Positions 19,465 to 61,988 of a DNA stretch of 64,000 bases are shown here, piece after piece. Below the pieces are notes generated by a model. The model saw nothing but the letters and a program-made list of their open reading frames with translations. It did no database searches and was not told the DNA's origin. Source of the DNA: a bacterium (GTDB lineage Bacteria > Patescibacteriota > Minisyncoccia > Phycocordibacterales > UBA9973); the NCBI GenBank assembly GCA_037200905.1, contig JBBCGN010000001.1, forward strand, positions 116,795-180,794, given 5' to 3'. The translations under genes and the position numbers were made by a program. The first letter of the stretch is position 1, and the number at the start of each line of letters is the position of its first letter.

Positions 19465-20001
19465 TTATTCGGCGTTGGTATAGACGTCCTGCACGTCGTC
19501 GTTCTCTTCGAGCTCGTTCACCAATTTCTCCAGCAGTCCGAGGTCGGTGTCGGAGAGGGGAATGGTAGAAGTGGGAATCCAGATCAAGCCTTCCGGCATC
19601 ATCTCTTTCTTGAAGGCCCAGGCCACCGCGCCGATGCCACTGAGCGCCGTGCCGTTTTCTGACAGGATATGCTTCACTTCCTGCGCCGTCCTGTTCTTCG
19701 AATCGGTCAGCGTCTCCACAATGATTCCCACGCCGCCCGGTCCGTAGGCTTCGTAAGTGATAGAGTCCATGTGCGCCGACGGTTCGGCGGCTTTCCTGAT
19801 GGCCCGTTCGATATTTTCCGAAGGCATGTTCACTTTCTTGGCCTTCTCGATGGCGGCGCGCAGGCCCGGAGATTCTTTCCCGCCCGAGAGCCGTGCTTCG
19901 ACTGCGATGAAACGCACGAGCTTCGAGAATATCTTGCTCTTCTTCGAGTCGGTAATAGCCTTCTTGTGTTTTATCTGCGCCCATTTATTGTGTCCTGACA
20001 T
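19465..20001 (-). CDS. yebC: YebC/PmpR-family transcriptional regulator
   Basis: MSGHNKWAQIKHKKAITDSKKSKIFSKL... is the canonical YebC N-terminus. 178 aa (shorter than the ~240 aa typical of YebC), no internal stop. Confidence 0.9.
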   Translation of the reverse strand: MSGHNKWAQIKHKKAITDSKKSKIFSKLVRFIAVEARLSGGKESPGLRAAIEKAKKVNMPSENIERAIRKAAEPSAHMDSITYEAYGPGGVGIIVETLTDSKNRTAQEVKHILSENGTALSGIGAVAWAFKKEMMPEGLIWIPTSTIPLSDTDLGLLEKLVNELEENDDVQDVYTNAE

Positions 20002-20087
20002 ATTTTTATCTTAAGAGGTTTTTAAGCAAAGAGCAAATTATTTCTTTACATATCATCATTCTATGATAGACTTTTGAAAAATTTAGT

Positions 20088-20495
20088 ATGTTTAACGCTC
20101 TTGCTTATTATGGCTGGAAAGTCAAAGATCAAGTTGATAATAATGAACTTTGCCAATTAAATCACATCCAACTTATTGAAATCTCGAAAATTCTAAAAGA
20201 CGAAAATGAAAAATGGTCAATTGAGAATTTGCTCACATCTTTCAAAAGCGATTTCGATAAAACCCTTTGCAATGTAGAAATAATGGAATTTGTGCTGAAT
20301 TACCCAGCGAGCATTAAGAGCTTGTGGAAAAATAAGAGGATCTATTTTCTTGGCACTAGATTTGCATCCCCAAAGGGAAACTTGCATATGTTTCCTCTTA
20401 TTTCCACCAGAAACAATTTCAATTTCTCTGCGGGTTATCGATGTGCTAACGACTTACACTGCAAAGATTCTTGTGATTTTATTGCTGTTTTTTAA
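20088..20495 (+). CDS. Hypothetical protein in an AT-rich islet
   Basis: 135-aa ORF, the only long ORF in a visibly AT-rich 0.5-kb segment between yebC and ruvC-side genes, on the opposite strand to its neighbours. No recognisable motif. Confidence 0.4.
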   Translation: MFNALAYYGWKVKDQVDNNELCQLNHIQLIEISKILKDENEKWSIENLLTSFKSDFDKTLCNVEIMEFVLNYPASIKSLWKNKRIYFLGTRFASPKGNLHMFPLISTRNNFNFSAGYRCANDLHCKDSCDFIAVF

Positions 20496-20526
20496 AAACG
20501 AAGGGAAAATCCTCTTCGTTTTTTAT

Positions 20527-21566
20527 TTACAATAAAGTATTCTGTTCTCTTTTAAAATCAAATCCGAGATGGTCGTAGGCTTTCTTGGTAGCCACTCGGC
20601 CGCGGGCGGTGCGTTCGAGCAGGCCTAATTGGATCAAATACGGCTCGATGACTTCCTCTACCGTAGCCTCTTCCTCGCTCATGGCTGCGGCCATGGTCTT
20701 GAGCCCTACCGGCCCGCCGTCGAATTTCTCTATCAATATTTCCAGGAATTTCCTGTCGGAAGAGTTCAAGCCGATGTCGTCGATGGCCAGCATGTTGAGG
20801 GCATCTTTCACCGTCTGCTTGTCCATATTCTTCTTGTTCACTTGGGCGAAGTCGCGGACGCGTTTCAGGAAGTAGTTCGCCGTGCGAGGAGTGAAGCGGC
20901 TGCGCTTGGCAATCTCTTCCAGGGCTTCGGTCTCGAGTTCCGTCTCCAAGAGCTTGCTCGAGCGCTTTACGATCTCGGCGATCTCTTCATTGGTATAGAA
21001 CTCGAGGCGGAAGACGCCGCCGGAGAAGCGTGAGCGGAGCGGGGAGGACACGAGCGCGACGCGGGTGGTGGCGGCGATCAGGGTGAACGGCGGCAGCTCG
21101 AGCTGGATAGTGCGAGCGGAAGGGCCTTTGCCGATAATGATGTCCAAAACACCCGACTCCATGGCGGGGTAGAGGATTTCCTCTACCATCTTGTTCAGGC
21201 GGTGGATCTCATCGATAAAGACGATGTCGCCGGGGGCGAGGTTGGTGAGGATCGAGGCCAGGTCGCCGACTTTCTCGATAGCCGGCCCGGAAGTGATCTT
21301 CATCTGCTTGCCCGTCTCCTTGGCTATGAGGTGTGCCAGGGTGGTCTTGCCGAGGCCCGGAGGGCCGTAAAAGAGGATATGCTCGGGTATCTGGCCGCGC
21401 TCTTCGGCGGCCCGGAGCAGGATTTTAACGTTGTCTTTTATATGTTTTTGGCCGATGTACTCGTCCCACCGGCCCGGGCGGAGGGTTTGGTCCAAAAGGA
21501 GTCCTCTCCCAAGGCGGTCTTGGAATCTCCTTTCTTTTCAATTTCGTTCTGAGTATCGCTTGACAT
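20527..21566 (-). CDS. ruvB: Holliday junction helicase RuvB (probable N-terminal extension via one frameshift at 21494-21497)
   Basis: The AAA+ core has GPPGLGKTTLA and VFIDEIHR. The track ORF starts at a TTG (21495). An ATG at 21566 opens MSSDTQNEIEKKGDSKTALGEDSF, which joins LDQTLRPGRWDEYIGQ if the t4 run gains 1 nt. Confidence 0.9.
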
Positions 21567-21588
21567 TAATTTTATATTATGCTATACT
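21560..21588 (+). promoter_or_regulatory. Strong sigma70-type promoter (TTGACA-17-TATACT with TG extension) with no plus-strand ORF downstream
   Basis: ttgaca at 21560-21565 and tgctatact at 21580-21588. The -35 overlaps the proposed ruvB ATG on the other strand. Confidence 0.55.
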
Positions 21589-21594
21589 GTATTT

Positions 21595-21877
21595 ATAGGG
21601 GATTATACACAGCGTATCAACACCCTACCAACAGATATGTGCACATTATAGCATTTACGCCTCGGTTGCGTATTTTCCTATATAGTACAATTACACACGT
21701 GAGACAAGAGGTTCGGTTTTCGCAAGAAGGCGCTAATCTCTAAGCAATCAGCCATCGGTTATACAAATTCGCAAAGGACGTTCTGGTACTATTTATAGGC
21801 GTCTGGGGTTATCCTTAAGAATTTGTTACTCTCGGGGCTCAGCCCTGAAAGGATTGTTTAGAGATTAGTGCTTTTTT
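21595..21877 (+). ncRNA. Candidate structured ncRNA of about 280 nt, class unknown
   Basis: Bounded by the promoter above and a 20-bp stem (21730-21749 with 21852-21871; 18 Watson-Crick and 2 GU pairs) followed by T6. There are further stems: uauagggga pairs with uuuuccuaua, and tacgc-ctcggtt-gcgta forms a hairpin. No ORF exceeds 14 codons. I see no RNase P, SRP, tmRNA or 6S hallmarks. Confidence 0.4.
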
Positions 21878-21885
21878 AGTTTCTG

Positions 21886-23217
21886 TTACTTAAACAGCTT
21901 CTTGATTGCCTGAATGTTAGGCATGAAAATGTGTTTCCTCTTTTTAGAGACTTGAACAAGTAACCCTTTATCCACTAAGTAAACTAAGTCATTGTATGCT
22001 GTCTGGGCGTGAAATCCATGCTTCGATTGATGAATAGTGACTTCTGTGGAAGTGTAATTTTTATTATCCAAAAAATATTGCAATAAAGCAATTTGCCTCG
22101 GATTATAGTCATCAAACTTATACGCAACCAGTTTTAGGTTTTCTGCCTCTTGCATTTTCTCATTAAAATATTCTAGGAATTTATTAATTGCAGTTTTAAA
22201 AGAATCAGCTATATAAGAAATAAAATAAGTTAAGTCGTTTTCATTTTCTGAGTAAATGAAGACGTTATCATATTTTTTTCTTGAATGCACGATTGCTCTA
22301 GAAATGGCCAAATATTGAACTAACCAATAATCATGCTTTAATAAATACCAGTGAAAAACAGCTCGAGCAGTTCGGCCATTTCCGTCAACGAAAGGATGCA
22401 AATATGCTATCCAAAAGTGTAGTATTATTGCTTTGACTACAGGATGGATAAAATCACCATCTTCTTCAACTTCAGGCTTATTAGCAAATTCAATCAGCTT
22501 TTTTAATTCACTATGCATATCTTTTTCTACTGGTGGCGTATGTACAATTTCGTTCGTAACAGGGTCTTTTACAACAATCTCGTCAGCATCGGTCCTAAAT
22601 CTCCCTTGATCATGATTATCGTCAAATGTTTTATTGGTGACAATTGTTTGAATTTCAAGTAACATATCTTCGCTTAAATCCAAATTCTTCCATTCCGTTA
22701 ATTTCTGCATCATTTCGTAACTGTTCACTATCATTTGTTCATCCTTTGTCCTTGCTGGCCTTTGTGATCTGAGCAATTCCTTCGCAACCTTTCTTGATGT
22801 GTTTGCTCCTTCAATTTGACTGGTTGCAATTGCTTCTTCAGTCAATCCTGCAATAATAAATTTATTTTTCTGTGTATCAGAAAGTTTAGTTGTTTTTATA
22901 AAGCTTGCAGCATGAGTATCAATGAAATTTAATTTCTGGTAAAGAGTATTAACGACAGCAAATTCAAATAATTTTCCAGTTGTTGATTTAACTGGTGTCC
23001 TTTGAGAGAGAGAACTTCTTCGAAGTTTTAAATATGCCCAAGCTTCTTCTTTTGTGAAGCCGGCTGGTATGGTTTGATACTTAAAAGTATCCCAATAAAG
23101 GTAATTTTTCTGTGCTTTATGTAACAGCTCTTCCAGAGCGGGGGAATTGGCTGCTCTTTTTATTAAGTCATCACTTATAAGCTCTATCCAAGCTGTCGGT
23201 TTTGGTATTTTTGCCAT
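21886..23217 (-). CDS. fic: Fic/DOC-family protein (class II, N-terminal inhibitory helix) with a C-terminal winged-helix-like region
   Basis: Fic motif HPFVDGNGRTAR and inhibitory motif TSQIEG ((S/T)xxxE(G/N)). 443 aa, intact, in an AT-rich island. Confidence 0.9.
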   Translation of the reverse strand: MAKIPKPTAWIELISDDLIKRAANSPALEELLHKAQKNYLYWDTFKYQTIPAGFTKEEAWAYLKLRRSSLSQRTPVKSTTGKLFEFAVVNTLYQKLNFIDTHAASFIKTTKLSDTQKNKFIIAGLTEEAIATSQIEGANTSRKVAKELLRSQRPARTKDEQMIVNSYEMMQKLTEWKNLDLSEDMLLEIQTIVTNKTFDDNHDQGRFRTDADEIVVKDPVTNEIVHTPPVEKDMHSELKKLIEFANKPEVEEDGDFIHPVVKAIILHFWIAYLHPFVDGNGRTARAVFHWYLLKHDYWLVQYLAISRAIVHSRKKYDNVFIYSENENDLTYFISYIADSFKTAINKFLEYFNEKMQEAENLKLVAYKFDDYNPRQIALLQYFLDNKNYTSTEVTIHQSKHGFHAQTAYNDLVYLVDKGLLVQVSKKRKHIFMPNIQAIKKLFK

Positions 23218-23340
23218 ACTGTTAATTTTAACATAATTAATAGTAAAATAGCAAGTACTATTTTAAGACCAAAAAATAAGGCTATAATTACAAATTATTA
23301 ATTTTTTCTAAATTAGAAGCTAATTAACAGTAAGTAGCTT

Positions 23341-25034
23341 TTATTCCTCGTTCAAGTCCACGACGGGATTGAACTTCGGCGATAGAGGTAATGCCGTTCA
23401 ATATCTTGACCGCGCCGTCCTGGCGCATGGTGAGGATGCCTTGGGCCCGGGCGGCTTTCTTGATCTCGCGCTCGCTCGGATTTTCGGTGATGATCTTCTC
23501 GATTTCCGCGTCGGTCTTGATAGCCTCGAATATGCCGATGCGGCCCCGGTAGCCGGTGCCGTTGCACTTGTCGCAGCCGACGGGGGAAAATATCTTGAAC
23601 GGCGCGTTGGGATTGATATTGTATGTGGCCAGATCCTTGCCCTCGTCCTTCATGCTCTGCACCGCGAGCATCAGGGTCTTCTTTTCTGCTTCGGCCAATT
23701 CCTTCTCCTCCTTGCAGTCGGGGCAGAGCACTCGCACCAGGCGCTGGGCGATGGAGAGCGACAGGGCCGAAACGAGGATCTTCGGATTGACCGACAGGTC
23801 GATGAGGCGGGGGATGGCCCCGGCGGCGTTGTTGGTGTGGAGGGTAGAGAGCACTAGGTGGCCGGGTGAGCGAAGACTGCACAGCGATCTCCGCCGTCTC
23901 GGCGTCGCGGATCTCTCCCACCATGATCACGTCCGGGTCCTGGCGGACGGCGGAGCGCAGGCCTTCGGGGAAGGTGTAGTTGTCTTCGGCCTGGGTCTGG
24001 GTAATGCCTTCGAGGTGGTACTCGATCGGGTCTTCGATGGTGATGATATTGATCTCCGTGGAGTAGATCTTGCGGATGAAGGCGTAGAGGGTGGTGGTCT
24101 TGCCGGAGCCGGTCGGGGCCGGTCACCAGGATCAGGCCGTTCGGCTTGGCGATCTCCTTCTCGATGATGGCCATCAGTACGGAGTCGATGCCGAGGTCGG
24201 TGAACTTCACCTGGATGGACTTCGGGTCCAGTATTCGCATGACGATGGCTTCGCCGTAGGCGCCCGGGATGAGCGAGGTGCGGATGCTGATCTCTTCGGC
24301 GTCTTCCATGATGCTGAAGCGGCCGTCCCTGGGCCACGTTCGAGGTGATCTTCATGCCGGAGAGGAGCTTGATGCGGGAATTGAGCAGGTGGTAGAGATG
24401 GGCGTCGAAGAACATCACGTCCTGGAGCACACCGTCGAGGCGCAGGCGCAGGCGGATCTGGTCCTTTTCCGGCTCGATGTGGATGTCGGAAGCCTTGATG
24501 GCGATGGCGCCGGCAAGGATGATCTCGAGCATGCGGGAGATCTTGTGCACGTCGGAGACGAGCGAGTCCTTGATGAGAGCCTCGATGTCCTGCATCTTGT
24601 GGATGTCCTTGGCCGTTTCCTTGAGCACTTCGCCGCTGATATCGAGGCCGCCCACTTTCGTGTTCTCCGGCGAGCGAGATTTCCTTGTAGCGGTCCCAGA
24701 CTTTCTCGAGCGAGGCCATGGAGGCCATGTAGAACGTCGGCACGAGGGTCTTCCGCTCCGCCGCGTCCTTCAGGCGGGAGATGATGTCCGGGTCGGGCGT
24801 GCGCACGGCGATGAAGATGTTCTTGCCGGAGAGCTTGAACGGCGCCACGCGCCATTCGCGGGCCTCGCTCTCGGGGATGATGCGCAGGGCCTCGTTGTCG
24901 ACGCCGAGGCGGGACAAGTCGACGTAGGGCAGCTTGTATTTCGACGCGGCGAGCACCTCTACGAGCTGTTCCTCCTCTGCCTTGCGCAGCTCTTCGAGCT
25001 GCCGTTCCGGTTTTTCTTCATCAAATTGAGCCAT
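23341..25034 (-). CDS. pilB: GspE/PilB-family type II/IV secretion (type IV pilus assembly) ATPase, with five apparent 1-nt insertions (23365-23367, 23864-23866, 24115-24118, 24327-24329, 24656-24658)
   Basis: After frame correction: Walker A ([16 protein letters not shown]), the Asp box, Walker B (VIMVGEIRD), the His box ([11 protein letters not shown]) and a tetracysteine (CPDC...CDKCNGTGY). The stop at 23341 assumes the c3-run correction; the uncorrected ORF ends at 23324. Confidence 0.85.
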
Positions 25035-29251: not shown

Positions 29252-29263
29252 CAAAGTACAAAA

Positions 29264-29292
29264 AAGAGCCTTATTATAGAAGGCTCTTTTTT
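29264..29292 (+). terminator. Intrinsic terminator after tRNA-Lys
   Basis: gagcctt-attatag-aaggctc stem followed by T6. Confidence 0.7.
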
Positions 29293-29328
29293 GTTGCAAA
29301 GTTATCCACAGTTTTCCCTTGTATGGGC

Positions 29329-29575: not shown

Positions 29576-31777
29576 ATGTCAAAAAGTATTTTCAATTTAA
29601 ACAGCGAGTTCGAGCCGGCCGGGGATCAGCCTGCGGCGATTTCTGCGCTCGTCAAAGGCTTGGACGAAGGCATGCGGGCCCAGACCCTGCTCGGCGCCAC
29701 GGGCACGGGCAAGACCTTTACCATGGCGAACGTCATCCGCGAGCATAACAAGCCGACGCTCGTCATCGCTCACAACAAGACGTTGGCCGCCCAGCTCGCT
29801 CAGGAGTTCCGCGGATTCTTTCCGGATGCGGCGGTGCACTATTTCGTCTCGTACTACGACTACTACCAGCCGGAAGCCTACATGCCGGTATCCGATACGT
29901 ATATAGAGAAGGATGCGCAGATCAACAAGGAGATCGATCGTCTTCGCCATGCTACTACGCAGGCCCTGCTCACGCGCCGCGATGTCATCATCGTCGCGTC
30001 GGTTTCTTGCATCTATGGCCTCGGTTCTCCGGAAGAATACGAGAAAGTGAATCTCAAGCTCGATGTCGGCATGAAGATGGACCGCCTCGCCCTCATGAAG
30101 CGCCTCATCGAGATACATTTCGAACGCACCAATGCCGACCTTTCTCCCGGCCAGTTCCGCGCGGTCGGCTCGAAGGTGGAGTTCATGCCGGTGTCGGAGA
30201 CCATGATGTATCAGGTCGGCCTCTCCGGCGGCACCATTTCCAATATCACGAAAGTCGATCCCGTCTCGGCGCAGATTCTCAAAGAAGAGGATAGCATCTT
30301 TATCTTTCCCGCGAAGCACTTCATCACCGAAGACGAGAAGAAGAAGAAAGCGCTTGTCTCCATCAAGGCCGAGCTCGAGGAACAGCTCAAGAAATTCAAC
30401 AAGGAAGGGAAGCTCTTGGAAGCCGAGCGCATCAAGCGCCGCACCAACTACGACCTCGCCATGATCAAGGAGATCGGCTACTGCAACGGCATCGAGAACT
30501 ACTCCCGCCATCTTTCCGGCAAGCGCGCGGGCGATCCGCCGGAGACCCTGCTTTCGTATTTCCCGCATATAAAAAGTCGGGCACACTCTCGCCGCCATTC
30601 GCGCTCTGTCTTGGAAGGGCAAGATCCATCTGCTCGCCGCGAAGATGGCTTTGAGAGTGTGCCCGACTTTTTGACAATTATCGACGAGTCCCATGTCACC
30701 CTGCCGCAGCTCCAGGGCATGTATGCCGGCGATGCGTCGCGCAAGAACACCCTCGTGGAATACGGCTTCCGCCTGCCGTCTGCCAAGGACAACCGTCCGC
30801 TCAAATACGAAGAGTTCAAGGAGCGCATCGGCCAGGTCATCTATACTTCTGCTACGCCGTCCGACAAGGAAAAAGAGGAAAGCGCCCAGATCGTGCAGCA
30901 AATCATCCGCCCGACCGGACTGATCGATCCGGAAATCACTATTAAGCCGGTCAGCGAGAAAGCGGCGTATCCCGGCCAGATACAGGATTTCATCGCGGAA
31001 GCGGAAAAGACCATCAAGGCAGGCTTTCGAGTACTGGCGACGACGCTGACCAAGCGCATGGCCGAAGACCTGTCTACATACCTCAAGGAGAAAGGCATCA
31101 AGGCCGAATACTTGCACAGCGAGATCAAGACCATCGAGCGCATCCAGATCCTGACGAACTTCAGAAAGGGCAATATGGACATATTGGTAGGCGTGAACCT
31201 GCTCCGCGAGGGCCTCGACCTGCCGGAGGTGGCACTGATCGGCATTCTTGATGCGGACAAGGAAGGCTTTCTGCGTTCGGAGACTTCGCTCATCCAGACC
31301 ATCGGCCGCGCCGCCCGCAACAGCGAGGGAAGGGTGATACTCTATGCCGATATCATGACAGGCTCGATGGAGGCAGCGATACGGGAAACGAACCGCCGCC
31401 GCGATGTGCAGCTCGAATACAACAAGAAGCACGGCATTACGCCGAAAACCATCCTGAAGAACATCAAGGATATTACCGAAGAGATGGAGTCCGAACACGG
31501 CAAGGCCGTGAACGCCGAACTGGCCCTCGATATCGAGGTGTTCAAGCGGGCCTATGCCAAAGAATTGAAGAGCGATAAGGGGAAAGTCACGAAAAAGGAC
31601 GGCATTACCGAAGTAAAGCTTACCATGTCCGACGAAGAGAGGAGCGACGCCGTCTACGAGAAAATCATCAAAATAAAGGAAAAAGAGATGAGCAAAGCCG
31701 TCAAAGAGCTCGATTTCGAGACGGCCGCCATACTCCGAGACGAGATAGCGGTGCTCCGGACCAGGATGGAAAAATAA
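29576..31777 (+). CDS. uvrB: Excinuclease ABC subunit B (carries a 33-34 aa in-frame insertion)
   Basis: Motifs: Walker A (GATGTGKTFTMA), DESH (IIDESHVTLPQ), the YGFRLPSAKDNRPL beta-hairpin region, helicase motifs V-VI and the C-terminal UVR domain (FETAAILRDEI). 733 aa, versus roughly 660-670 typical. Confidence 0.95.
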   Translation: MSKSIFNLNSEFEPAGDQPAAISALVKGLDEGMRAQTLLGATGTGKTFTMANVIREHNKPTLVIAHNKTLAAQLAQEFRGFFPDAAVHYFVSYYDYYQPEAYMPVSDTYIEKDAQINKEIDRLRHATTQALLTRRDVIIVASVSCIYGLGSPEEYEKVNLKLDVGMKMDRLALMKRLIEIHFERTNADLSPGQFRAVGSKVEFMPVSETMMYQVGLSGGTISNITKVDPVSAQILKEEDSIFIFPAKHFITEDEKKKKALVSIKAELEEQLKKFNKEGKLLEAERIKRRTNYDLAMIKEIGYCNGIENYSRHLSGKRAGDPPETLLSYFPHIKSRAHSRRHSRSVLEGQDPSARREDGFESVPDFLTIIDESHVTLPQLQGMYAGDASRKNTLVEYGFRLPSAKDNRPLKYEEFKERIGQVIYTSATPSDKEKEESAQIVQQIIRPTGLIDPEITIKPVSEKAAYPGQIQDFIAEAEKTIKAGFRVLATTLTKRMAEDLSTYLKEKGIKAEYLHSEIKTIERIQILTNFRKGNMDILVGVNLLREGLDLPEVALIGILDADKEGFLRSETSLIQTIGRAARNSEGRVILYADIMTGSMEAAIRETNRRRDVQLEYNKKHGITPKTILKNIKDITEEMESEHGKAVNAELALDIEVFKRAYAKELKSDKGKVTKKDGITEVKLTMSDEERSDAVYEKIIKIKEKEMSKAVKELDFETAAILRDEIAVLRTRMEK
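30571..30672 (+). repeat. 102-bp palindromic element with perfect 20-bp terminal inverted repeats, inserted in frame in uvrB
   Basis: aaaaagtcgggcacactctc (30571-30590) is the exact reverse complement of gagagtgtgcccgacttttt (30653-30672). Inner pairings are gccat/atggc, tcgcg/cgcga and tcttg/caaga. It encodes HIKSRAHSRRHSRSVLEGQDPSARREDGFESVP between the conserved YFP and DFLTIIDESH. Confidence 0.85.
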
Positions 31778-31779
31778 AA

Positions 31780-31813
31780 AGTGGTTCTCTCTGCGTCAGA
31801 GAGAACCACTTTT
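31780..31813 (+). terminator. Intrinsic terminator after uvrB
   Basis: 12-bp stem agtggttctctc/gagagaaccact with a 7-nt loop and a T-run. Confidence 0.8.
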
Positions 31814-32227: not shown

Positions 32228-34894
32228 GTGCGAAATACGTTATATGGCAAAAATCAAATGAAACACCAGCAAAATATAGACAAAATAACCATAAAAGGGG
32301 CACGAACCCACAATCTGAAGAACATCAGCGTGGAAATGCCGCGCAACAAGATGGTGGTCATCACCGGCGTCTCCGGCTCGGGCAAGTCTTCGCTCGCATT
32401 CGATACCATATTCGCCGAAGGCCAGCGCCGCTATGTCGAGTCGCTGTCTTCCTATGCCCGCCAGTTCCTGAATCAGATGCCGAAGCCCGATATCGATGAG
32501 ATCACCGGACTTTCGCCGGCGATATCCATCGATCAGAAATCTCGCTCGAACAATCCGCGTTCGACGGTGGCCACTATCACTGAGATCTACGACTACCTGC
32601 GCGTCATGTACGCCCGCATCGGCCATCCGCATTGTCCGGTCTGCGGCGAAGAGATCAAGAAGCTCTCGAACGAGGAGATTCTGAATTTCATCTTGGAAAA
32701 GATAAATGCACTGAACAAGGGCGGCAAGGACAAGAAGAAGGACAAGTCTGTCATGGGCGTGGAATGGAACGAGACGGAAATCAGTATCTTCTCTCCGGTA
32801 GTCCGCGGCAGGAAAGGCGAGTACTATCAGCTGCTCTATGATTTGCTCGGCAAGGGCTTTGCCGATGTCCGTCTCGACGGCGAGATGAAGAAACTGCGCG
32901 AGAAGATCACTCTTTCAAAGAATAATGCGCATGACATCGATGTCTTGGTGGATAAATTCTTTTTGCATGAATTTGTGAGCGATAAGGATGGCAGCCGCAT
33001 GCGCTTGTCCGAAGCGCTCGAGCGCTCATTGCTCGAGTCCGACGGCCTCGTGTCGGTGAAGATCGGCGAAGAAGAGACGCTCATGTCCGCGAAATTCGCC
33101 TGCAAGAACGACGGCTTTTCTTTCCCCGAAGTCGAGCCGCGATTATTCTCTTTCAATTCTCCCTACGGCGCCTGCCCGGTCTGTAATGGCCTCGGCACCA
33201 AGTACTTCGGCGGCGACGAGCCGTGCGATGCCTGTCATGGCGCGCGCCTGCGTCCCGAAGCCTTGAATGTGTTTCTCTCCGCGCATAATGTCGGCCCAGA
33301 AAACAAAGCGAATAAGACCCACAAGAAGCAAGTGAATATCCTCGATCTCGCCGGTCTGACCATCGAAGAGGCCCATGACTTTTTCAAGAATCTGAAACTT
33401 TCGGAACAGGAGAAAGAAATCTCCGTGCCCGTAGTGCGTGAGATCGAGGCGCGTCTGCAGTTCATGCTCGATGTCGGTCTCGATTACCTCCAGCTCTCGC
33501 GCAAGGCCAACACGCTCTCGGGCGGGGAAGCCCAGCGCATCCGCTTGGCTTCGCAGCTTGGCTCTCGTCTCGTCGGCGCACTCTACGTGCTCGACGAGCC
33601 GACCATTGGCCTGCATCAGCGTGACAACGACAGGCTCATAAAAACCTTGTTAAACCTGCGCGATCTGGGAAATACTATTCTCGTTGTAGAACACGACGAA
33701 GATACGATCTATGCGTCTGACTATATCGTAGACATCGGTCCGAAGGCCGGCGTGCACGGCGGAGAAGTGATCGTAGCCGACTGGCTCGAAGACCTGCTGA
33801 CCGCCAAGAAGAACACCAGCGGTTCGCGTACGCTCGCATATCTGCGCGAGGAAACGAGGATCGAAGTGCCGAAGAAGCGCCGCGAAGCCAAGGGTCATCT
33901 GAAAATCGTCGGCGGAAAAGTTTTCAATATCAAGAATATGAACGTCGATATCCCGCTCGGCGTCATGACCAGCATCACCGGCGTCTCCGGCTCGGGCAAG
34001 AGCTCGTTCATGTACGAGATCCTGCACAAGAACCTGCAGGCCCGTTACGAGCGTGCCTTCCGCACGGCAAAGGTTTACAACTGCGCATCATTTACTGGCA
34101 CGGAGTATCTTTCCCGCGCCATTCTCATCGACCAGTCGGCCATCGGCCGCACGCCGCGCTCGAATATCGCCACGTATACCGGCACCTTTACCCACATCCG
34201 TGATATTTTCGCGACGACTGAAGAAGCTCGCCTGCGCGGCTGGAAAGCAAACAGATTTTCCTTCAACGTCAAAGGCGGCCGTTGTGAAGCTTGCGAAGGC
34301 AACGGCGAGATTGCTGTAGAAATGCACTTCCTGCCGACGGTATACGTCACCTGCGATGTCTGCGGCGGCAAGCGCTTCGACAAAGAGACGCTGACGGTGA
34401 AATACAAGAAAAAGAATATCTATGAAGTTCTCAAGATGACTGTCGAAGAAGGCTTGAAATTCTTCGAAGATATTCCGGCGATAGGTGATCGTCTCCAGAC
34501 TCTCATGGACGTGGGCCTTGGCTATGTCGAGCTGGGACAGTCGGCGACCACACTCTCGGGCGGAGAAGCCCAGCGCGTAAAAATCTCGAGCGAGCTCTAT
34601 CGTCCGCATACAGAAAAAACTATTTATCTTCTTGATGAACCGACAGTGGGACTGCACTATGACGACGTGGCGAAACTCTTGGAAGTATTGAACAAGCTCG
34701 TCTCGAAAGGAAATACCGTCGTCCTTATCGAGCACAATCTCGACATCGTGAAGTGTTCGGACTATATCATCGACATCGGCCCAGAAGGAGGAGTGAACGG
34801 CGGCACGCTCGTGGCCAAAGGCACGCCGGAAGAAGTGGCGAATAATGCCAAGAGCTATACGGGGAAATATCTGAAGAAAGTGCTGAAAAAATAA
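32228..34894 (+). CDS. uvrA: Excinuclease ABC subunit A
   Basis: Two ABC modules ([12 protein letters not shown] and [12 protein letters not shown]; LSGGEAQR twice) and zinc-finger Cys clusters ([30 protein letters not shown]). An alternative start is the ATG at 32258 ([15 protein letters not shown]). Confidence 0.95.
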
Positions 34895-34921
34895 AACACG
34901 AGTTTATATAAACTCGTGTTT
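34895..34921. terminator. Bidirectional terminator between uvrA and the 34943 ORF
   Basis: aacacgagttt-atat-aaactcgtgtt stem with flanking A and T runs. Confidence 0.75.
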
Positions 34922-43302: not shown

Positions 43303-43983
43303 TTATTTCTGGGAGTCCATCCTCTCTTTTATTTTTTTAACCGTATCAGCGAAGTCTTCCTGCGCCTTTTTCCCTACTTCGCTCCTGCCAATTATGGAAC
43401 CATTTTCATCTACGCCATAGGCCTCACTCGATTCTCCTTCATCCACATCAACGGTCGCGGCAATAATTACTCCACTTTCGCGATCAGCATCAAACTCGAC
43501 CACGGTTACGCCAGTTAAGTTGCTATTGGCAAGAAATTCAAGATAATGAATGGTCTTATCGTCGAATCTTATTTGATTACCCATTGTATATTCAACGCCG
43601 CCATAGTTCATTTTATTACTCTCTCCCAACGATATGTAATCATGCGCATGATAGCTGTCCACTGTATCTATTTCGATATCACCTTCGTGGTTTTCAAAGC
43701 GAATTTCCGTTTTTCCGCTAGCCTTGGCTTGCTGTATGATCGCTGTCAAGGCAGAAATGTCTGCCGTTGAAATAGCAGGCGCACCCTTCTCTTTGAGATT
43801 TTTCAAGATCTCACCGCTTGGCATATGGTCTTTGTTTCCGCACGACGCTAAAAATACGGCAAAAGCTATTGGAACGCCAGAAAGACGGAGGACTTTCCCG
43901 GCTCTCTCTTTCCAGCTCGGCCTCTCTTTGTTTATCGGATCCTCCTTCTTTTCAGAACTATTCAAACTGCCTTCTATTCCCAT
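43303..43983 (-). CDS. Probable lipoprotein, function unknown
   Basis: Lipobox in AFAVFLASCGNKD. The start is taken at MGIEGS (43983) because the upstream part of the track ORF is occupied by a strong RNA/DNA structure. GC content is lower than its neighbours. Confidence 0.5.
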   Translation of the reverse strand: MGIEGSLNSSEKKEDPINKERPSWKERAGKVLRLSGVPIAFAVFLASCGNKDHMPSGEILKNLKEKGAPAISTADISALTAIIQQAKASGKTEIRFENHEGDIEIDTVDSYHAHDYISLGESNKMNYGGVEYTMGNQIRFDDKTIHYLEFLANSNLTGVTVVEFDADRESGVIIAATVDVDEGESSEAYGVDENGSIIGRSEVGKKAQEDFADTVKKIKERMDSQK

Positions 43984-44042
43984 AAAAATTATATTTTTAA
44001 TATTGATGCGCACTGGCCGCGCACCTTCTTCTTCAAGCCGAA

Positions 44043-44117
44043 GCCTGATGCTTTTCTGAACGGTCTGGCCGGGGTTGAGGCCCCGGAGATCCGAGGATCT
44101 GAAGAAAAGCATCAGGC
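44043..44117 (-). other. 75-nt three-way-junction-like element (15-bp closing stem plus two internal hairpins)
   Basis: gcctgatgcttttct (44043-44057) is the exact complement of agaaaagcatcaggc (44103-44117). Internal hairpins are ccgggg-ttgagg-ccccgg and agatc-cgag-gatct. It lies between hpf and the lipoprotein gene. Confidence 0.5.
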
Positions 44118-44220: not shown

Positions 44221-44604
44221 TTATTTCTTCCAGTTCCTGATGCCTTTCAGGGCATCTTTTATCTTGCGCGCGCCGCGATGGAACAACGCCAGGCGCTTGC
44301 CCTTGTCGCGGCTCATCTCCGCGAACAGGCTCGCCTTGACCTCGTCGATGGCCTGATACAGGTCTTCCTTGTCGGCGCTGGCATAAAATTCTTTTCCGTC
44401 TATCTTTATCAGGCAGTCGGCATGGAAGACTTCGCCCGCCTTGTGGTGATTCGTGCTCTTCGATACTTCGAAATTGACCATCACGGCCTCTCCGCGGGCC
44501 TCGATCTTCGACAGCATCTTGTCGAGGTTGGTCACGCGCTTCTGCACGTAGTCCTCGATCGCCTCGGTCAGTTCCAGATTCTTGCCGTATAAATTTATTT
44601 TCAT
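44221..44604 (-). CDS. hpf: Ribosome hibernation factor (RaiA/HPF family, short form with a basic tail)
   Basis: MKINLYGKNLELTEAIEDYVQKRV...EDLYQAIDEV is the HPF signature. The start is taken at the internal ATG at 44604, 6 nt downstream of a TATAAT. Confidence 0.85.
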   Translation of the reverse strand: MKINLYGKNLELTEAIEDYVQKRVTNLDKMLSKIEARGEAVMVNFEVSKSTNHHKAGEVFHADCLIKIDGKEFYASADKEDLYQAIDEVKASLFAEMSRDKGKRLALFHRGARKIKDALKGIRNWKK

Positions 44605-44610
44605 ATTCTC

Positions 44611-44639
44611 ATTATACCCATAACGACCGGAGAAGCAAA
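44611..44639 (-). promoter_or_regulatory. hpf promoter (TTTGCT-17-TATAAT), giving a leaderless transcript
   Basis: On the minus strand, tataat lies at 44616-44611 and the -35-like tttgct at 44639-44634. Confidence 0.45.
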
Positions 44640-44641
44640 AC

Positions 44642-44716
44642 AAGCCCGAAAATGCCTTGCGCAGGAGCTTAGAAAATAAAGTTTGAGCTCAAAATTATGT
44701 GTGCATTTTCGGGCTT
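44642..44716 (-). terminator. Long hairpin (14-bp perfect arms, 47-nt loop) after the GH130 operon
   Basis: aagcccgaaaatgc (44642-44655) is the exact complement of gcattttcgggctt (44703-44716). On the minus strand it is followed by gttttgcttc. Confidence 0.45.
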
Positions 44717-44733
44717 ATTTTGCTTGGCAGCCT

Positions 44734-46667
44734 CTATTCAAGCCTCATGCCGTGTACGAGCGCATTCACCAGAACCTCTGTTTTCATGGTCGCCACGCCC
44801 ACCACCGTGTCCGCGCCGCCGTAGTAGATATACAAGACCCCTTCTTTTTCCACGACGCCGCACGGGAAAACCACATTCGGTATGAAGCCTTCCTTCTCAT
44901 ATTTTTCTTCCGGCTCGAAGATCGGTTCAGCCCCTCGTGCGAGCACTATGGCGGGATCCTTGAGATCGAGCAGGGCGGCGCCGATGCGGTACGTGTTGTT
45001 TGATTTCGATACGCCGTGGTACAGCAGCAGCCAGCCGTATTTGGTCTTGATGGGCGGACTAGCGATGCCCACTTTGGCGCTGTCCCACATATTGGCGCGC
45101 GGCCCGATGATATGGATGCATTTCTTCACGGAATCCGTGGCGAAGTCGAGGGTCTTCAGATAATCGCCGCAGACCTCGTTCGAGACGCGGTGCATGACGA
45201 AATAGCCGTGCTTGAATTTCTCGGGAAAGAGGCAGGCATCCTTGTCATCCACGTCGTTCGGCGTGATGATGAACGGCCTGGCCCAATTCCATTTCTTGGC
45301 AGCAAAATCTTTAACTGAAATCGAAGCGATGGCCACGCGCGGCGGCCCGATAGTGTCGAAGGCCGTGTAGCACATGTAGAGATTGTCGCCGATCCTGGTC
45401 AGGCGCGGATCCTCGCAGCCGGAGAACCCTCCGTCGGATTTCTTCGCCTCGAAATCCTCGCGCGGCACGTACACCGGCTCCGTCAGCCGCTCGGCGATAG
45501 TGAAGCCGTCCTCGCTCATGGCGTAGCCGATAGTCGATGTATTGTCGTTCGAAAAAGCCCGGTAGAGGATATGGATCTTCTTGTCCACCATGATAGCGGC
45601 GGGATTGAAGGTGCCCTTGGCTTCCCATGGCATGTCTCTCGGCACGATGATAGGATTTTTCTCGTAGCGCTTGAAGCGATACTCTTTTCCGAATTCGGGA
45701 TGCATGCTCATGACGAGATCGGTGAAATTCACCCGCGCCATGCAGACAGTAGTATCTGCGGCGCCATAATAGATAGTCAGGATATCCTTCTCGAGGAGCG
45801 CGCCTGTAGGAAAGATGACGTCGGACACATACCCCGAGAGCTCGTACATCTCTTGCGGTACCAGTATCGGCCCGCGAGTCCTGCCAACAATCTTCTTCGG
45901 ATCATCGAGGTCGAGCAATACCGCTTCAACGCCGAAAATCCTGTCGAGATTCCGCGGATGCGGATAGTAGTTCTGAATATGCGAATATACCAGCAGCCAG
46001 CCGTATTTGGTCTTGATGGGCGGAGCGCCGACTTCTATCTGGTCATAGTCGGCTCTTTTGAGATTTACCACGTCGTTCTCTATATTCTCCTCCCATTTTT
46101 CCCAAAATTCCGGCGACCACAGCTCTTCTATCGCATCAACTTTGACTATCACCATGCGCGTCGGGCGGCGAATCGGTATGGGCGGAAAAGATGACTACTA
46201 TCTTGCCGTTCACGCGCTCGGGAAAGAGCGCCATGGCCTTGGCATTGAACGGCGTCACGAAATGCCGCTCGTCCACCTTCTTCATGTCTTTCGATATGGC
46301 CACCGCCACCTTGATGCCTTCGGGGCCCAGCGGATATTTCGAGAGCGCGGTATAGAAGATATAATATTTGCCTTCGAAAAAAGTCACCCGCGGGTCTTCG
46401 CAGCCGAACTGGTCCCACTCCTCCTCGGGACCGATGAATATCTGCCTGTCTTTCCAGTGTATGCCGTCTTTCGATCTGGCGATGCCGATAGTCGAGATCT
46501 GATGCGGATTCCTGATAGGATCGACGGCCGAGATGGCGCGATAGAGGCCGTATATGGTAGTGCCAACCTTGACCGGAGGACATATTGAACGTAGCAAATT
46601 CTTCCCAGTAATGGTCTTTGTTCGGCAGGAGCACCGGATTCTCTTCTGTTCGTTTTACGACGTACAT
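44734..46667 (-). CDS. Tandem double GH130-family (beta-mannoside phosphorylase/glycosidase-like) protein, with two apparent frameshifts (46163-46165 and near 46583)
   Basis: Two complete repeats of the pattern NPxxxP...FNP(A/T)...GCEDPR(V/L)T...YTA...PIKTKYGWLL(V/L)YH...YYGGADT. It starts MYVVKRTEENPVLLPNK. Confidence 0.8.
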
Positions 46668-57200: not shown

Positions 57201-60200
57201 TGTCAGAGCTGTTGGCGCGATAATTTCGCCTGTCGTATCCGCTACGAATGAAACATCGTAGTTCGCTCCCCCATTTCCATCAGAAACTGTTCCCGATGCA
57301 GTAAGAGTTTTGCCGGAACCAGGATTTTTGTCATCATACGTTTCTGCAAATATTGCTGTATCGCCTGGGACAAGAGAACCTACCGTGATAGTACCGACTG
57401 CAATTGCAGAAGTGTTGCCGTCATAAGCTTTGCTGTTTGTGTTTGCAGTTACAGTGATCGATCGCATGGTGATTTCGAGGTTTGCACCAACAAATGAGAG
57501 CGTGTAGCTCGCAGGAAGTACAAGCGTACCCTGTGTGATCGCATATGAGTCTACATTTTCACCTGCAGTACGAACGAGTGAGCCAGTGAAAGCATCGCCT
57601 GTTGCAAGCGCCGGAGTAAATTGATATGTCAGAGCTGGATCATCTTCACCGTATACTTTCGTCTGTGCATCCGCGGTCACCGTGATAATCTTTGCACTGA
57701 TTGCGTCAGAAACATTGCCTGAAGCATCGTTGTAGTTACCAGTCGCATCAGTGAACGTCCACGTATCGTTGTAAGTGCTTGCGGCAGTATGTGTCGTAGT
57801 AGAGAGGTCGAGGCCAGTGAGAACTTCAGCGTTTACGCCCGTTGCAGTACCTGTAGCGGTGTGAGGATTACCATCATAGGTAACATCGTAACCATCAATA
57901 GATATGTCAGCGTCAGCCTTAGCAATGGTAATAGCGACATCGCCAGACTGTGCAGCATAGTTCGGATTAGAGAATATCCAGTGCGCAGTGCCGCCTGGAG
58001 CATTTGTATAGGAAGCGCCGAGAGAAAGTCCGGAAAGCGGGCCTTCAAATGAAGTACAGGTACCGGTCGCGCCATGTACTGCGCCGTCATAGGTGTCAGA
58101 GTATCCATCAATGTCGCAAGTCGCTGTCGCAGCGGTGATGTCTGCACTCGTAGTAGCAGTAGTGTTTGCGAGATCATAATTACCGGCATCTGCACCATCG
58201 ATAGTGATACCATCGACTGCTATTGGCTTGTCTACACCGACAGTTGCGGTATCAAATGCTGACGATGCGTAGTGAGCTACGACATCGTCTGCACCGACTG
58301 CGTCGGTAGTAAGAGTAACTGTTGCATCTGTTGTACCGTCGTATTCCTTATCGATACCTGTCGCAGAGACAGTGAGAGCTTTTTTCGTAATGTCAAAAGT
58401 TTCCGAATCAGTGCTTCCTGCATAATTCCCATTTGCTGCATAGGTCGCAGTAGCGGTAGCCGGGCCGACGATAACGTTGTCTTCGTATGTAACATTTACG
58501 GGTTCATTTAATCCGGGACCGGTGACAGTCGCAGTACAAGGCTCGATTGCTGAACCGGTGTATTCCTTTGTGTCAGGACAAGTGACAGTCGTAACCGTTT
58601 CCGCGGCTGTGATAGCGTCATCAACGGTGCCCGATGCATTGTTATAATTTCCTGTTACATCAGTAAATGTCCATGCATCATCATCGTATGTACCGGCATC
58701 AGTATGTGTAGTGCCTGTGAGTACGAGACCTGCAAGTGTTTCATCGAGTACGCCTTTTGCCGTGCTGGTCGCAGTGTGAGAGTCGCCGTCGAAAGGAACA
58801 GAGTATGCCGTCACCGTGATACTAGGATTTGCCTTGCCGATCACGTCATGCACGCTTCCTGAAGCATCGACATAATTGCCATCTTCATCATGGAAAGTCC
58901 ATGCATCTGTCGGATAATCCGCTGCGTTTGTATGAACTGTTGCAGAGACATCGACATCGGCTGAAAGATCTTCACCGTGCGCGCCAGTGGCGACGACGGT
59001 TGCAGTGTGAGCCGAGCTATCATACGTAACGCTATACGGACTGACAGTGATGTCGGCTGTAGCCGGAGTTACAGAAACTGAACCATCTACATATGTGAAT
59101 GTGTAGTTAGGATCAGCAGCACCAGAACAACTTGAAGTGTTTACAGAACCGACAACTGAAGCAGTCGTTGCTGTCGTGGAACATGTCGGAGCAGTTATAG
59201 GAATTATAGACGGCGCGTATGAAGGCGTGATTGTCGGAACAGTTCCGCCGTATACCATCGTGTCGCTCGAAGCGGTCACCACTACGGAAGCCGGAGTGAT
59301 AGTAAAGTTCGCAGTGTTATAAGTGATGTTGTAGTTCGCAAGAACGCCAGACGGAGAAAGAATTGCGGAAATCGTGTACGTGGCGACAGGTTCCCCTGCT
59401 GTTCTACTATATGTAGCAGTAACGCTGTCAGCCGGCAAGAATCCGGTGAGTGTTCCGGTAAATGCAGGATCAACTGTGCCGAAAACTTTTGTAGAAGCGT
59501 TCGGAGTTACGGAAGCTGTTTTCGTAGCGACTGTGAAAGACTGATCGACAGCTGCTGCAGCGTTGTAGTTTCCATCCCCTGCCTGCGTTGCCTCTATAGT
59601 ACAAAGACCAGCAGCTGCGATGTGAACTGTTGTGTCGGTTACAGTACAGACGCTCGGAGTAGTCGAAGCAAATGCCACGGTCAAACCAGAAGTTGCTGTT
59701 GCAGAAACTGCAAAGTCAGCATCGCCGTAAGTCTTGCCAGCCAAAGCTCCGAAAGAAATTGTTTGAGAAGTTGCTGTAACGGTAAGTTGTCCAGCATTAA
59801 ACGGTGTAAAAAAATAGTTGCTTGCAGAGAGAGTCCCTATCGTACAAGTAATTGCATATGGACTACCAGATACAGGACTTGTAGGCGTAGCAGTTGTAGA
59901 ACATGCGGGAGCGCCTGCTAGTCCAGAGGTTCCAAGATTTTGGCCGTTTACGAATCCAGAAACAGTCGCGTCGAATGCCGGATTTGCAGCGTTGTATGCT
60001 CGGCTCTTATCGTTTGCAGTTATTGCGAGAGGAGCTTTGGTTACGTTAACTGTTCTGGTTTTCTGGGTTGCAACATTACCTGCTGCATCTGTCGCATTGT
60101 AATTGATAGTGTATGCGCCGACGACAGAAGAAGGAGTAACTGTTGATCCACTTACAACTACTGCTCCCTCAGTTGTCGTTGCACCAGCATCAATATATGT

Positions 60201-61661
60201 ACTGCCATAAACAGATGAAGTTGGATTTGAACCTGTGACAGTTATGACAGGAGCAGTTGTATCAATAGTTATTGAAAGATTTCCAGAAGCAGCTGAGACG
60301 TTTCCTGCTGGGTCAGTCTGTTTGGTATTCATAGTTGCATGAATACCTTGAGACAAAGCTGAAGAAGTTATAGTGACAGTTGAAGAAGCGCAGAGGCCTG
60401 TGCCGACAGAAGTAGTGTTATCGAATAAAGTAACTGTGCTTCCTGTGACACAAGAAATTGTAAAAGTAGGAGTCGTATCAGAAGTAATATTGTCGGTAGA
60501 AGATGAACCTAAATCGGTCGCAGCTGTCATGTCCGGAGTTCCAGGAGCAGCGTCAGGTGTTACATCAGCTGTGTAAGAAACCTTTGCCTGAATCTGATCC
60601 ACACGAAACTCATCACCCGCACTGGTAGTTAAAGCAGTTAATCTTATTCTAAAGTTTGCATTTGTAAATTCAGCTGGTGACCATGTTCGTCCCCATATAT
60701 CAGATGTTCCACCGAAAATAACAGTTTTGTCTGCAGCGCCAGTGGTAAATAATGTTCCTGTATTTTTTACCGTTGTCCAATGCACACCATTATCGTATGA
60801 AAGTGAAATGTCTATAGTTCTTGGGTCTGGTCTGTTTCCTTCAAGAGCTACCTGAATACCATTAATAGTAGCTCCTGTAGGAACGCTTAAGCCAAAAGTT
60901 GTGTAATCAATAGAATCGCCTGCACTATTAAAAACTGCATACTGGTCATCAGAAGAAGCTGCATTAGTAGGGGTATCTACATTAGTATTATTTGCTGTAC
61001 CACCTTCTGCACTCCAACCACCGTCGAAGGTAGCAGTAATAGTTTTATCAGACGTAACGTTCGTAAAAGTATATGAATTTACACGTCCTTGAGATGCAGG
61101 AACAGTAACGTCAGAAACTACATATCCAGCAGATGGAACAATAGAAAGGGTTTGATTAGCACCATTAGAAACTGACGGGTTTGCAGGTGTTATCGTTCCT
61201 CCTACGCCAGGAGTAGTAGTAATTGTGTGAGGGGAAGCAACAGTGATAGCATTAGTTAATGTTAGAGTATTGCTATTTGAACTACCATTACAATCATCTG
61301 CCGAGTTCATTATGAAATATGCGTTGTATATTCCTGGTGTAGTTGGGGCTGTGATAGTAAAACTTTCAGTAGTAGAACCAGAGAAAGAGGTATTGTCATC
61401 GGTATTAGCACAAGTCGTTGAACCAGGAGCAGAATTATTAATTCTCCATTTTGTACCTTGCCAATCAGTATTAGAACTCCAACTTCCAGTTACAGCAGCT
61501 GTAATTGAGGCACCAGGTTGTACCGTTACAGTACTTAAACCGTTTAAGGTTGCTGAAGTAACAGTCGTTGCTGCCAACGCTGTTGAAGCATTAGAGAATA
61601 AAAATCCGACCACAAGGAGAACTGGTAATACAAAACGAAAAGCTGATGTAAGTTTCTTCAT
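51272..61661 (-). CDS. Giant secreted surface protein/adhesin (about 3460 aa) with a C-terminal peptidoglycan-binding domain (one frame break in the c6 run at 51663-51668)
   Basis: 3366-aa uninterrupted ORF with a signal peptide (LFSNASTALAATT). It has dozens of Ig-like and MBG-type repeats (xTVTADxKxKxYGxxDPxLTY, YDGxxHxAT), HYR/DUF5011-like modules, an FN3-like module and a DUF4114-like module (NDFNDLVVTVT). Removing one G joins it to ORF 51272..51760, which is PG_binding_1-like (AVAKLQKFLN...GIFDQPTEDALKAFQ). Confidence 0.85.
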
Positions 61662-61940
61662 AACAATAATAATTAAACTTTTAATAATTAAACTGACTTC
61701 GACTTTGTGGCTCTGCCCCTAGTGGTGGATCTGGCCTTTGTTTATTACTTTGAGCCATATAGGCTATATGACCCGACACTACCACACGCGGATATATTGT
61801 CAACATGTTTTGACACAGCAAGTTGATTCCCGCCGCCCGTCAAATTTTGCTTTTTCTCTTTCGCGCTCCGCTCCTCCCGCCCCTGTCGCGCCCTTGCTGT
61901 CTCTTCGCCTCCCTTCATCCCTCCACCATTCCTCTCTCCA

Positions 61941-61960
61941 ATCTACGCCATGGCGTAGAT
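61941..61960. promoter_or_regulatory. 20-bp perfect palindrome ATCTACGCCATGGCGTAGAT, copy 1 (candidate operator overlapping the -35 position)
   Basis: Self-complementary and identical to 62442..62461. It ends 13 nt upstream of the TATACT -10. Confidence 0.6.
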
Positions 61961-61970
61961 TTAAAGAGTA

Positions 61971-61979
61971 TGCTATACT
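61971..61979 (+). promoter_or_regulatory. Extended -10 promoter (TGcTATACT) for the Cas2-like gene, giving a leaderless transcript
   Basis: Same 9-mer as at 21580 and 32175. The -10 ends 9 nt before the ATG at 61989. Confidence 0.5.
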
Positions 61980-61988
61980 CCTCGTAAT

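Follow-up and report, generated by a model that had tools for sequence, protein, structure and literature searches.

A 102-nt in-frame palindrome in uvrB as a probable protein-coding repeat of Patescibacteria, with covarying arms and a constrained core

The uvrB gene in the 64-kb stretch of Patescibacteria DNA analysed here (the window) raises the question of how a long palindrome comes to lie inside the reading frame of a DNA-repair gene, and what maintains it there. The original prediction described an in-frame block with perfectly inverted ends, and such a block is confirmed at 30571-30672: 102 nt and 34 codons free of stops, within the uvrB open reading frame (ORF) 29576-31777 and placed in the protein between YFP and DFLTIIDESH (site 1 hereafter). 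Its two ends, 30571-30590 and 30653-30672, are perfect reverse complements, and allowing three mismatches the complementarity reaches 28 nt (30571-30598 against 30645-30672, 89% complementary). The expectation that almost the entire block folds into one long hairpin is borne out by the 122-nt stretch 30561-30682 containing it, with an RNA folding energy of -57.6 kcal/mol against -32.6 ± 3.8 for shuffled sequences (z -6.6, none of 200 shuffles as good) and a DNA fold z of -7.1, the predicted GCCAT/ATGGC pairing being present. Probably, the block is a copy of a small palindromic repeat, protein-coding and non-autonomous, that is the functional counterpart of the Rickettsia palindromic elements (RPEs).

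The membership of the block in a dispersed family emerges from searches at several levels. A profile of the uvrB copies run with nhmmer leads to uvrC (L081 15286-15405; fetched loci are given as L numbers) and to polA (L082 7209-7328, reversed, and L086 6234-6351), and the window copy matches the family profile with E = 1e-29. A neutral core DNA pattern, TTCGCNNNCNNTNNTGGAAGRGNAAGNNNNNTCTG, scanned across 185,579 species with one genome each, returned 60 matches in 56 stretches, all of them Patescibacteria metagenome-assembled genomes (MAGs) labelled Nomurabacteria, Paceibacterota, Paceibacteria or only generically. Running nhmmer over all fetched loci gave 76 copies, about 70 once twice-fetched stretches are removed, and long ORFs enclose 75 of the 76; the one main-family copy outside an ORF, L095 6053-6140, follows the end of one gene and directly precedes leuS. 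From these sequence searches the element appears confined, in every collection searched, to one Patescibacteria clade labelled Paceibacteria or 'Nomurabacteria'. An exhaustive peptide-profile search of representative proteins gave six hits only, presumably because the 50%-identity clusters are represented by insert-free proteins. Within the 64-kb window neither arm sequence has a further match (0.01 expected by chance), and no Rfam 15 family matches the element in a search of window 30300-30950 up to E = 10, the sole match there (30929-30950, E = 1.5) being irrelevant and not part of the element.

Host genes, called by clustering and Pfam after masking the element, comprise those for UvrB (two sites), UvrC (two or more sites), UvrA (two sites), PolA (in the linker that follows the 5'-3' exonuclease domain), Tgt, the leucyl-tRNA synthetase LeuRS, the CCA-adding enzyme and RecJ, where copies in both orientations occupy one site. 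Two fragments from the peptide-profile search, P0124 and P0125, judged by eye, probably add an RsmA/KsgA-type methyltransferase and the CarA C-terminus. With at least eight to ten different genes hosting it in both orientations, the element behaves as the original prediction proposed when it likened the block to in-frame RPE insertion. One to four copies are seen per genome (for example up to three in L097 and in CAYYJU), and 62 of 67 distinct copies are located in uvrA, uvrB, uvrC, polA or recJ. The second UvrB site lies between RPVSE and YPGQ, as placed by protein alignment of L083 (11391-11514), whose central 69 nt are identical to those of the same genome's site-1 copy while the outer arms differ. 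This RPVSE/YPGQ site and the PolA site after the 5' nuclease domain we take, with the domain maps, to be inter-domain linkers.

Alignment of the 67 distinct copies is gap-free over 108 columns (alignment A1). Inside six variable outer bases per end, the consensus consists of the left arm TCAGGAAnATGCTC, the core TCCGTCATTCGCACTCTGTCTTGGAAGGGCAAGATnTTTCTGGTCGTAGCGAAGATTCCTCC and the right arm GAGCATnTTCCTGA. In the 102-nt element, which carries no transposase gene, the consensus inverted repeat of 14 nt, TCAGGAAnATGCTC, lengthens to 20 bp, and its outermost 6-9 nt differ between loci but still pair. In many copies, the window's included, the perfect terminal pairs number exactly 20 and the span is 102 nt, and RNAalifold applied to the family independently predicts a 20-bp terminal stem. 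All 20 stem pairs change on both sides, with 88.6% of cells paired against 36-42% in slid controls, and the stem covariation score is 0.57 against 0.10-0.17 for controls, a value that 0 of 500 shuffles reach. Among 17 orthologous uvrB site-1 copies, covariation holds for 16 of the 20 pairs, and the paired share of cells is 90.3% against 29-48%; the persistence of covariation among orthologous copies indicates that the arms co-evolve in place.

The non-canonical cells of the stem carry a strand signature, with 24 G.T and 75 A.C among 1340 cells on the plus strand, counts that are not phylogenetically independent. The scarcity of G.U pairs argues against selection on a sense mRNA hairpin, the form in which the original prediction saw an RNase III substrate. 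Wobble pairs bring the sense-strand RNA no benefit, and the complementarity has the look of a property of the DNA. The A.C excess on the plus strand amounts to wobble on the opposite strand, which could make the opposite strand the folded form that matters.

The core is 62 nt long in all 67 copies, although most copies were recovered by an exact pattern fixing 22 core positions and their spacing, which inflates the absence of indels and the list of invariant columns and leaves unspecified positions, arms and flanks unaffected. Column identity in the core is 0.87, 0.87 and 0.84 at codon positions 1, 2 and 3, whereas the flanking uvrB columns have 0.80-0.93 at positions 1 and 2 and 0.57-0.59 at position 3. 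Pairwise comparison of 16 site-1 loci gives 0.79 for the core, 0.78 for core third positions and 0.76 for the arms, compared with 0.41 for third and 0.85 for first plus second positions of the flanks. Because its third codon positions are as conserved as the first and second, the element is constrained as nucleic acid and not as protein. An internal helix (pairs 31-35 with 72-76) is paired in 56-67 of the 67 copies and almost invariant.

This pattern bears directly on the possibility that the insert is a lineage-typical functional protein loop, in which an Arg/Ser/His/Glu-rich peptide matters and the DNA palindromy is incidental. The peptide is well conserved, 62 of the 67 distinct copies reading ..RRSHSVLEGQ.. 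(conserved peptide ..RRSHSVLEGQDLSGRSEDSSE..) in the same frame, but the five inverted copies yield the unrelated ..RNLRYDQKELALPGQSANDGE.. at the same sites, the same peptide recurs, modelled as disordered, in unrelated enzymes, third codon positions are as conserved as the other two, and the stem covariation has no protein-level account. Such a loop is therefore very unlikely to explain the insert. In 66 of 67 copies the frame that is read is open, with a hydropathy of -1.42, the frame read in reverse copies has -1.14, and a third frame, open in 60 of 67 copies but hydrophobic (+0.83), is never used, so that only the two hydrophilic frames of six are employed.

The 120 closest UvrB proteins, 75-84% identical and from Paceibacteria/Parcubacteria-type MAGs, place the insert in an evolutionary context. 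The strict insert motif is found in 46 of them and divergent versions in at least three more (about 49, or roughly 40%), at the same spot, with a site-1 peptide consensus of H-IKNPEYTRRRSHSVLEGQDLSGRSEDSSEYIP-DFL; five of the 120 carry two element copies. Insert-free orthologues read YFPKTGFL or YFKGDFL, some carry short remnants resembling the two arms minus the core (HIKNTPDFL, HKKNPEYPSQHIPDFL), and the remaining ones carry different inserts. Orthologues with a similar segment devoid of symmetry, which would have pointed to a mere lineage loop, are not what this set offers: the symmetry is kept through compensatory changes, the window arms reading GGGCACAC/GTGTGCCC where L083 and L084 have GGAACAT/ATGTTCC. 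A reading of the GAACAT..ATGTTC arms as a LexA/Cheo-box was considered and dropped, these arms occurring in a subset of copies only with half-sites about 70 bp apart.

The same orthologues dispose of a technical origin. Fold-back artefacts in some library preparations do generate palindromes, and an assembly chimera had been raised with the original prediction; homologous palindromic inserts nonetheless occupy one and the same codon position in dozens of MAGs that different projects assembled independently, differ from one another by compensatory changes and keep the frame intact in all copies but one, leaving a chimera or fold-back sequencing artefact scarcely credible.

Between YFP330 and D332-F-L, solved UvrB structures have just one residue and the window protein has 33, in keeping with the short segment anticipated for other UvrBs, with one residue in place of the expected two or three. 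The empty orthologue L088 reads YFPKTG-FLT, with TTT TTA where the window's right arm ends; of the native D-F-L codons attributed to the right arm, the overlap involves F-L at its outermost end, and the net gain relative to empty orthologues is 31 residues, not 34. In the AlphaFold2 (AF2) model of the window UvrB, the predicted local distance difference test (pLDDT) score is below 50 for residues 334-360, which form no secondary structure; the motif-II strand (366-370) is modelled normally, as is the remaining fold. The insert thus models as a disordered loop, which we infer to be surface-exposed. Inserts account for much of the 695-786 aa length spread among the 120 orthologues and deserve recognition in annotation, alignment and phylogenomics of marker genes of the candidate phyla radiation (CPR).

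The positions of the window copy are collected in Table 1.

Table 1. Features of the palindromic element and its host gene in the window (A1, alignment of 67 copies)
Feature	Position	Strand	Description
Host gene uvrB	29576..31777	+	733 aa; identical to NCBI MAG protein from GCA_037975565.1
Complete palindromic element	30571..30672	+	102 nt; A1 columns 4-105; encodes IKSRAHSRRHSRSVLEGQDPSARREDGFESVPDF
Peptide stretch within window UvrB insert			..SRSVLEGQDPSAR..
Left terminal inverted repeat	30571..30590	+	20 nt, AAAAAGTCGGGCACACTCTC; A1 columns 4-23
Outer portion of left arm, AAAAAGTCGGG			complement of right-side P-D-F-L codons
Core	30591..30652	+	62 nt
GCCAT, window-specific inward extension of palindrome	30594..30598	+	in register with arms; pairs with ATGGC
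Internal 5-bp helix, 5' half TTCGC	30598..30602	+	A1 columns 32-35 invariant, column 31 in 64/67 copies; all five bases preset by the scan pattern
Central motif TGGAAGgGcAAG	30612..30623	+	upper-case bases invariant in 67 aligned copies (A1 columns 45-50, 52, 54-56); nine of them (TGGAAG and AAG) preset by the scan pattern
Internal helix, 3' half GCGAA	30639..30643	+	
ATGGC, partner of GCCAT extension	30645..30649	+	peptide shifts from family ..EDSS.. to ..EDGF..
Right terminal inverted repeat	30653..30672	+	20 nt; final bases TTTTT are native UvrB F-L codons
DESH codons (helicase motif II)	30683..30694	+	first codon begins 11 nt past the element's last base

Around the host gene, perfect short hairpins of 17, 15 and 14 bp that resemble intrinsic terminators, at 31777-31813, 29258-29294 and 34894-34921 directly follow the stop codons of uvrB, an upstream 215-aa ORF and uvrA, respectively. 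A 633-aa minus-strand ORF (29597-31498) runs antisense across nearly all of uvrB, including the element, and is most likely a by-product of codon usage. The G+C content is 0.42-0.46 at window positions 20001-24000 and 60001-62000 and 0.52-0.60 in the remainder of the window.

The contribution of native uvrB codons to the palindrome had led the original prediction to propose a template switch. A purely local origin, in which the whole 102-nt block was reverse-copied from nearby uvrB as a private quasipalindrome, would account for the outer left arm, which complements native P-D-F-L codons, and for the in-register GCCAT/ATGGC extension private to the window copy, where the family consensus reads TCCGTCAT ... 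GATTCCTCC and is non-complementary in that register. It would also suit two other loci in which native host codons form one arm: at uvrB site 2 of L117, the native Y-P-G-Q-I codons make up 15 nt of the right arm, to which the left arm is complementary at 21 of 22 positions, and a 10-bp hairpin in L086 uses native P-D-F codons. The 62-nt core and inner arms, however, are common to at least eight other genes and about 50 other genomes, so the block was not made from local uvrB, and an entirely local origin is highly improbable. From the native codons in the arms of the window copy, L117 and L086, together with the private extension, templated arm-to-arm copying probably acts secondarily on an element of outside origin, and in this reduced role the proposed template switch is retained. 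A 13-nt inverted repeat in uvrA (32770-32782 / 32864-32876) was rejected as a further candidate, both arms being native conserved codons and about 1.3 such pairs being expected by chance.

The dynamics of the copies were assessed from core identity, which is 0.845 within genomes (17 pairs), 0.777 for the same site in different genomes and 0.769 for different sites in different genomes. Within-genome resemblance is exemplified by L081, where HTRRHSHSVLEGKDLSGRSKDSSEYV is identical in uvrB and uvrC, and by the uvrB and polA copies of L127, and core divergence follows host-gene divergence with a Spearman coefficient of 0.49. These comparisons suggest vertical descent plus some within-genome homogenisation. 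No flanking direct repeat that could represent a target-site duplication accompanies 51 of the 67 copies, and those of the others, 1-3 nt long, are at chance level. At uvrB site 1 of L103 (..KKTQEYSRRNLRYDQKELALSGQSANDGEDTLGTFSTEDSSKDIPDFL..), what is left of a forward copy encloses a reverse-oriented one, reflecting either repeated insertion at one site or core inversion with partial duplication.

Other hairpins share these sites, and both fresh copies of the element and members of other hairpin families settle within or beside older copies. The element's left half in L087 has been taken over by another hairpin family, and the UvrC loop RGKEL^FGPF carries differing hairpin inserts in different genomes. 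Other palindromic inserts occupy the exact uvrB site 1 at L085 10997-11125, L086 11009-11080 and L087 11000-11131; the core of the L085 insert recurs in L113 and L136, and that of L086 in L101, L111 and L096. The recurrence of such inserts elsewhere indicates that several coding hairpin families coexist and share target loops. The window itself holds a copy of a second hairpin-repeat family at 44043-44117 (arms CCTGATGCTTTTC/GAAAAGCATCAGG, GC-rich centre GGCCGGGG..CCCCGG, DNA fold z -5.1), overlapping the 5' end of the minus-strand ORF 43303-44112; its core is also found in L087 uvrB site 1, L090 uvrC, L096, L081, L083, L085 and L110. An intergenic 93-nt palindrome at 44633-44725, with 23-nt arms (96% complementary) and a 47-nt spacer, lies between the minus-strand ORFs 44221-44643 and 44734-46155 and is unrelated in sequence to the uvrB element.

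The combination of a constrained core and a compensated stem also invites a host-level explanation: a cis-acting nucleic-acid signal coordinating genome-maintenance and some RNA-handling genes, the hairpin serving as a protein-binding DNA or RNA structure or as a site for RNase III or other processing, with in-frame hydrophilic coding as the price. A core conserved at the nucleotide level across the 67 copies would suit such a signal, as would a stem preserved by covariation and exactly 20 bp long in many copies, yet sense-strand G.U pairs are rarer than A.C mismatches. The element is kept at the same sites in many species with saturated synonymous sites, but it is patchy among close relatives, persists in some only as the arm-only remnants, occurs in both orientations at the same sites and is substituted at the same loops by unrelated hairpin families. 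The concentration of copies in DNA-repair and replication genes, obtained with an unbiased pattern scan, is offset by hosts that include tgt, leuS, the CCA-adding enzyme gene and probably rsmA and carA, by the one intergenic copy, and by the window's own polA, uvrA and uvrC, which carry no element. Taken together, these observations make the signal explanation quite improbable.

Candidate identities of known DNA signals were likewise examined and rejected. Neisseria DNA-uptake sequences are enriched in repair genes; an uptake sequence was dropped for this element, whose copy number falls short by orders of magnitude. Nor does the consensus match parS or dif sites. Inspection of alignment A1 shows neither of the integron attC motifs, R'' (RYYYAAC) and R' (GTTRRRY), at the ends of the consensus or of the window copy, and the element sits within conserved genes rather than between cassettes.

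Under the favoured explanation of a non-autonomous coding repeat, a DNA-level process recognising the folded hairpin together with the conserved core would spread or refresh the element, through a trans-acting enzyme or gene conversion between copies. Template switching from arm to arm would maintain complementarity and could draw native host codons into the palindrome, and the host would tolerate the outcome, 34 hydrophilic residues in an inter-domain loop leaving the enzyme undisturbed. Movement as a DNA hairpin with trans-acting recognition of the core is suggested by the covarying stem, the constrained core and the absence of target-site duplications, as well as by the strand-asymmetric wobble pairs and the nesting of copies in existing hairpins.

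Several observations weigh against this explanation. No mobilising enzyme or autonomous partner was identified in the approximately 8-22 kb around each copy, and transposition itself is something we infer. The number of copies per genome is far below that of RPE-1 in R. conorii. The concentration of 62 of 67 copies in genome-maintenance genes is unpredicted by purely random selfish insertion, a bias that could stem from the linkage of these genes within about 10 kb together with a small number of old insertions inherited vertically. The core, far more conserved across species than synonymous sites and free of indels in the 67 copies, most of which an exact core pattern had retrieved, exceeds the expectation for decaying junk and needs either ongoing refreshment from constrained active copies or a host-level function. 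The correlation between core and host-gene divergence agrees with constrained vertical descent no less well than with frequent movement.

A less probable view, on balance unlikely, is that the element is no decaying junk but a structured DNA/RNA module under purifying selection. In one form it would be a site-specific 'homing hairpin', an enzyme recognising the 62-nt core in a single-stranded fold-back, with no target-site duplication and with the target copied into the opposite arm. In another it would be a domesticated signal linking uvrA, uvrB, uvrC, polA and recJ as a post-transcriptional or DNA-level regulon in bacteria that, to our knowledge, have no classical regulators.

Comparison with known systems places the coding-repeat explanation among described elements. 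RPE-1 to RPE-10 (Ogata et al. 2000, 2002, summarised in PMC10969869) are palindromic repeats lying in frame in unrelated genes, with 44 copies of RPE-1 in R. conorii, and RPEs are reported to lose repeat identity over time (PMC6649704). The present family shares with them palindromic repeats of about 100-150 bp, in-frame location in unrelated housekeeping genes of a small-genome bacterium, a conserved peptide per family, fold-compatible insertion, several coexisting families and the lack of an own transposase. It differs in its phylum, Patescibacteria, in copies per genome (1-4 against 44 of RPE-1), in arms that stay complementary via compensatory change, in a core conserved at synonymous positions, and in the recurrence of the same few loops with hosts strongly biased to uvrABC, polA and recJ. 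Since all 56 stretches are Patescibacteria, and the likeness is one of properties, the element is filed as an RPE analogue and not as a member of an RPE family. The original prediction knew of no such element in CPR-like genomes, and none was found in the searchable literature on CPR, Patescibacteria or Parcubacteria.

Nematomorpha mitochondria contain coding palindromes for which template-switch repeat conversion has been proposed (PMC6649704). These likewise consist of inverted repeats in translated genes with perfect or near-perfect arms, gained and lost between species, whose maintenance suggests active repeat conversion or template switching. There both arms encode conserved native protein and no core is shared, whereas here a 62-nt core and inner arms define a dispersed family that is mostly added protein sequence. 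[quoted passage not shown] The family departs from them in having no target-site duplication and no known parent insertion sequence, in its almost exclusively intragenic location, and in an inverted repeat whose outermost bases vary by locus while remaining complementary.

Single-strand DNA elements recognised as hairpins include REP/RAYT systems, the ends of IS200/IS605 and integron attC sites, REPs being extragenic. As in the family, their structure is preserved although the stem is free to vary, the unpaired core is conserved, wobble pairs are strand-asymmetric, no target-site duplication is left and new copies settle in existing hairpins; they differ in that no HUH transposase or integrase is linked to the element here within the same 8-22 kb surroundings. 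Against this background, the uvrB palindrome represents an RPE-like coding repeat in a new lineage, with arms actively kept complementary and a core constrained as nucleic acid. An independent family, accompanied by sister families, in free-living or episymbiotic ultra-small Patescibacteria indicates that essential genes of small, streamlined genomes, where intergenic space is scarce, can repeatedly come to carry such elements. The synonymous-site-conserved core and compensated stem, absent from the Rickettsia case, open the question of how such elements move and persist to comparative genomics and biochemistry.

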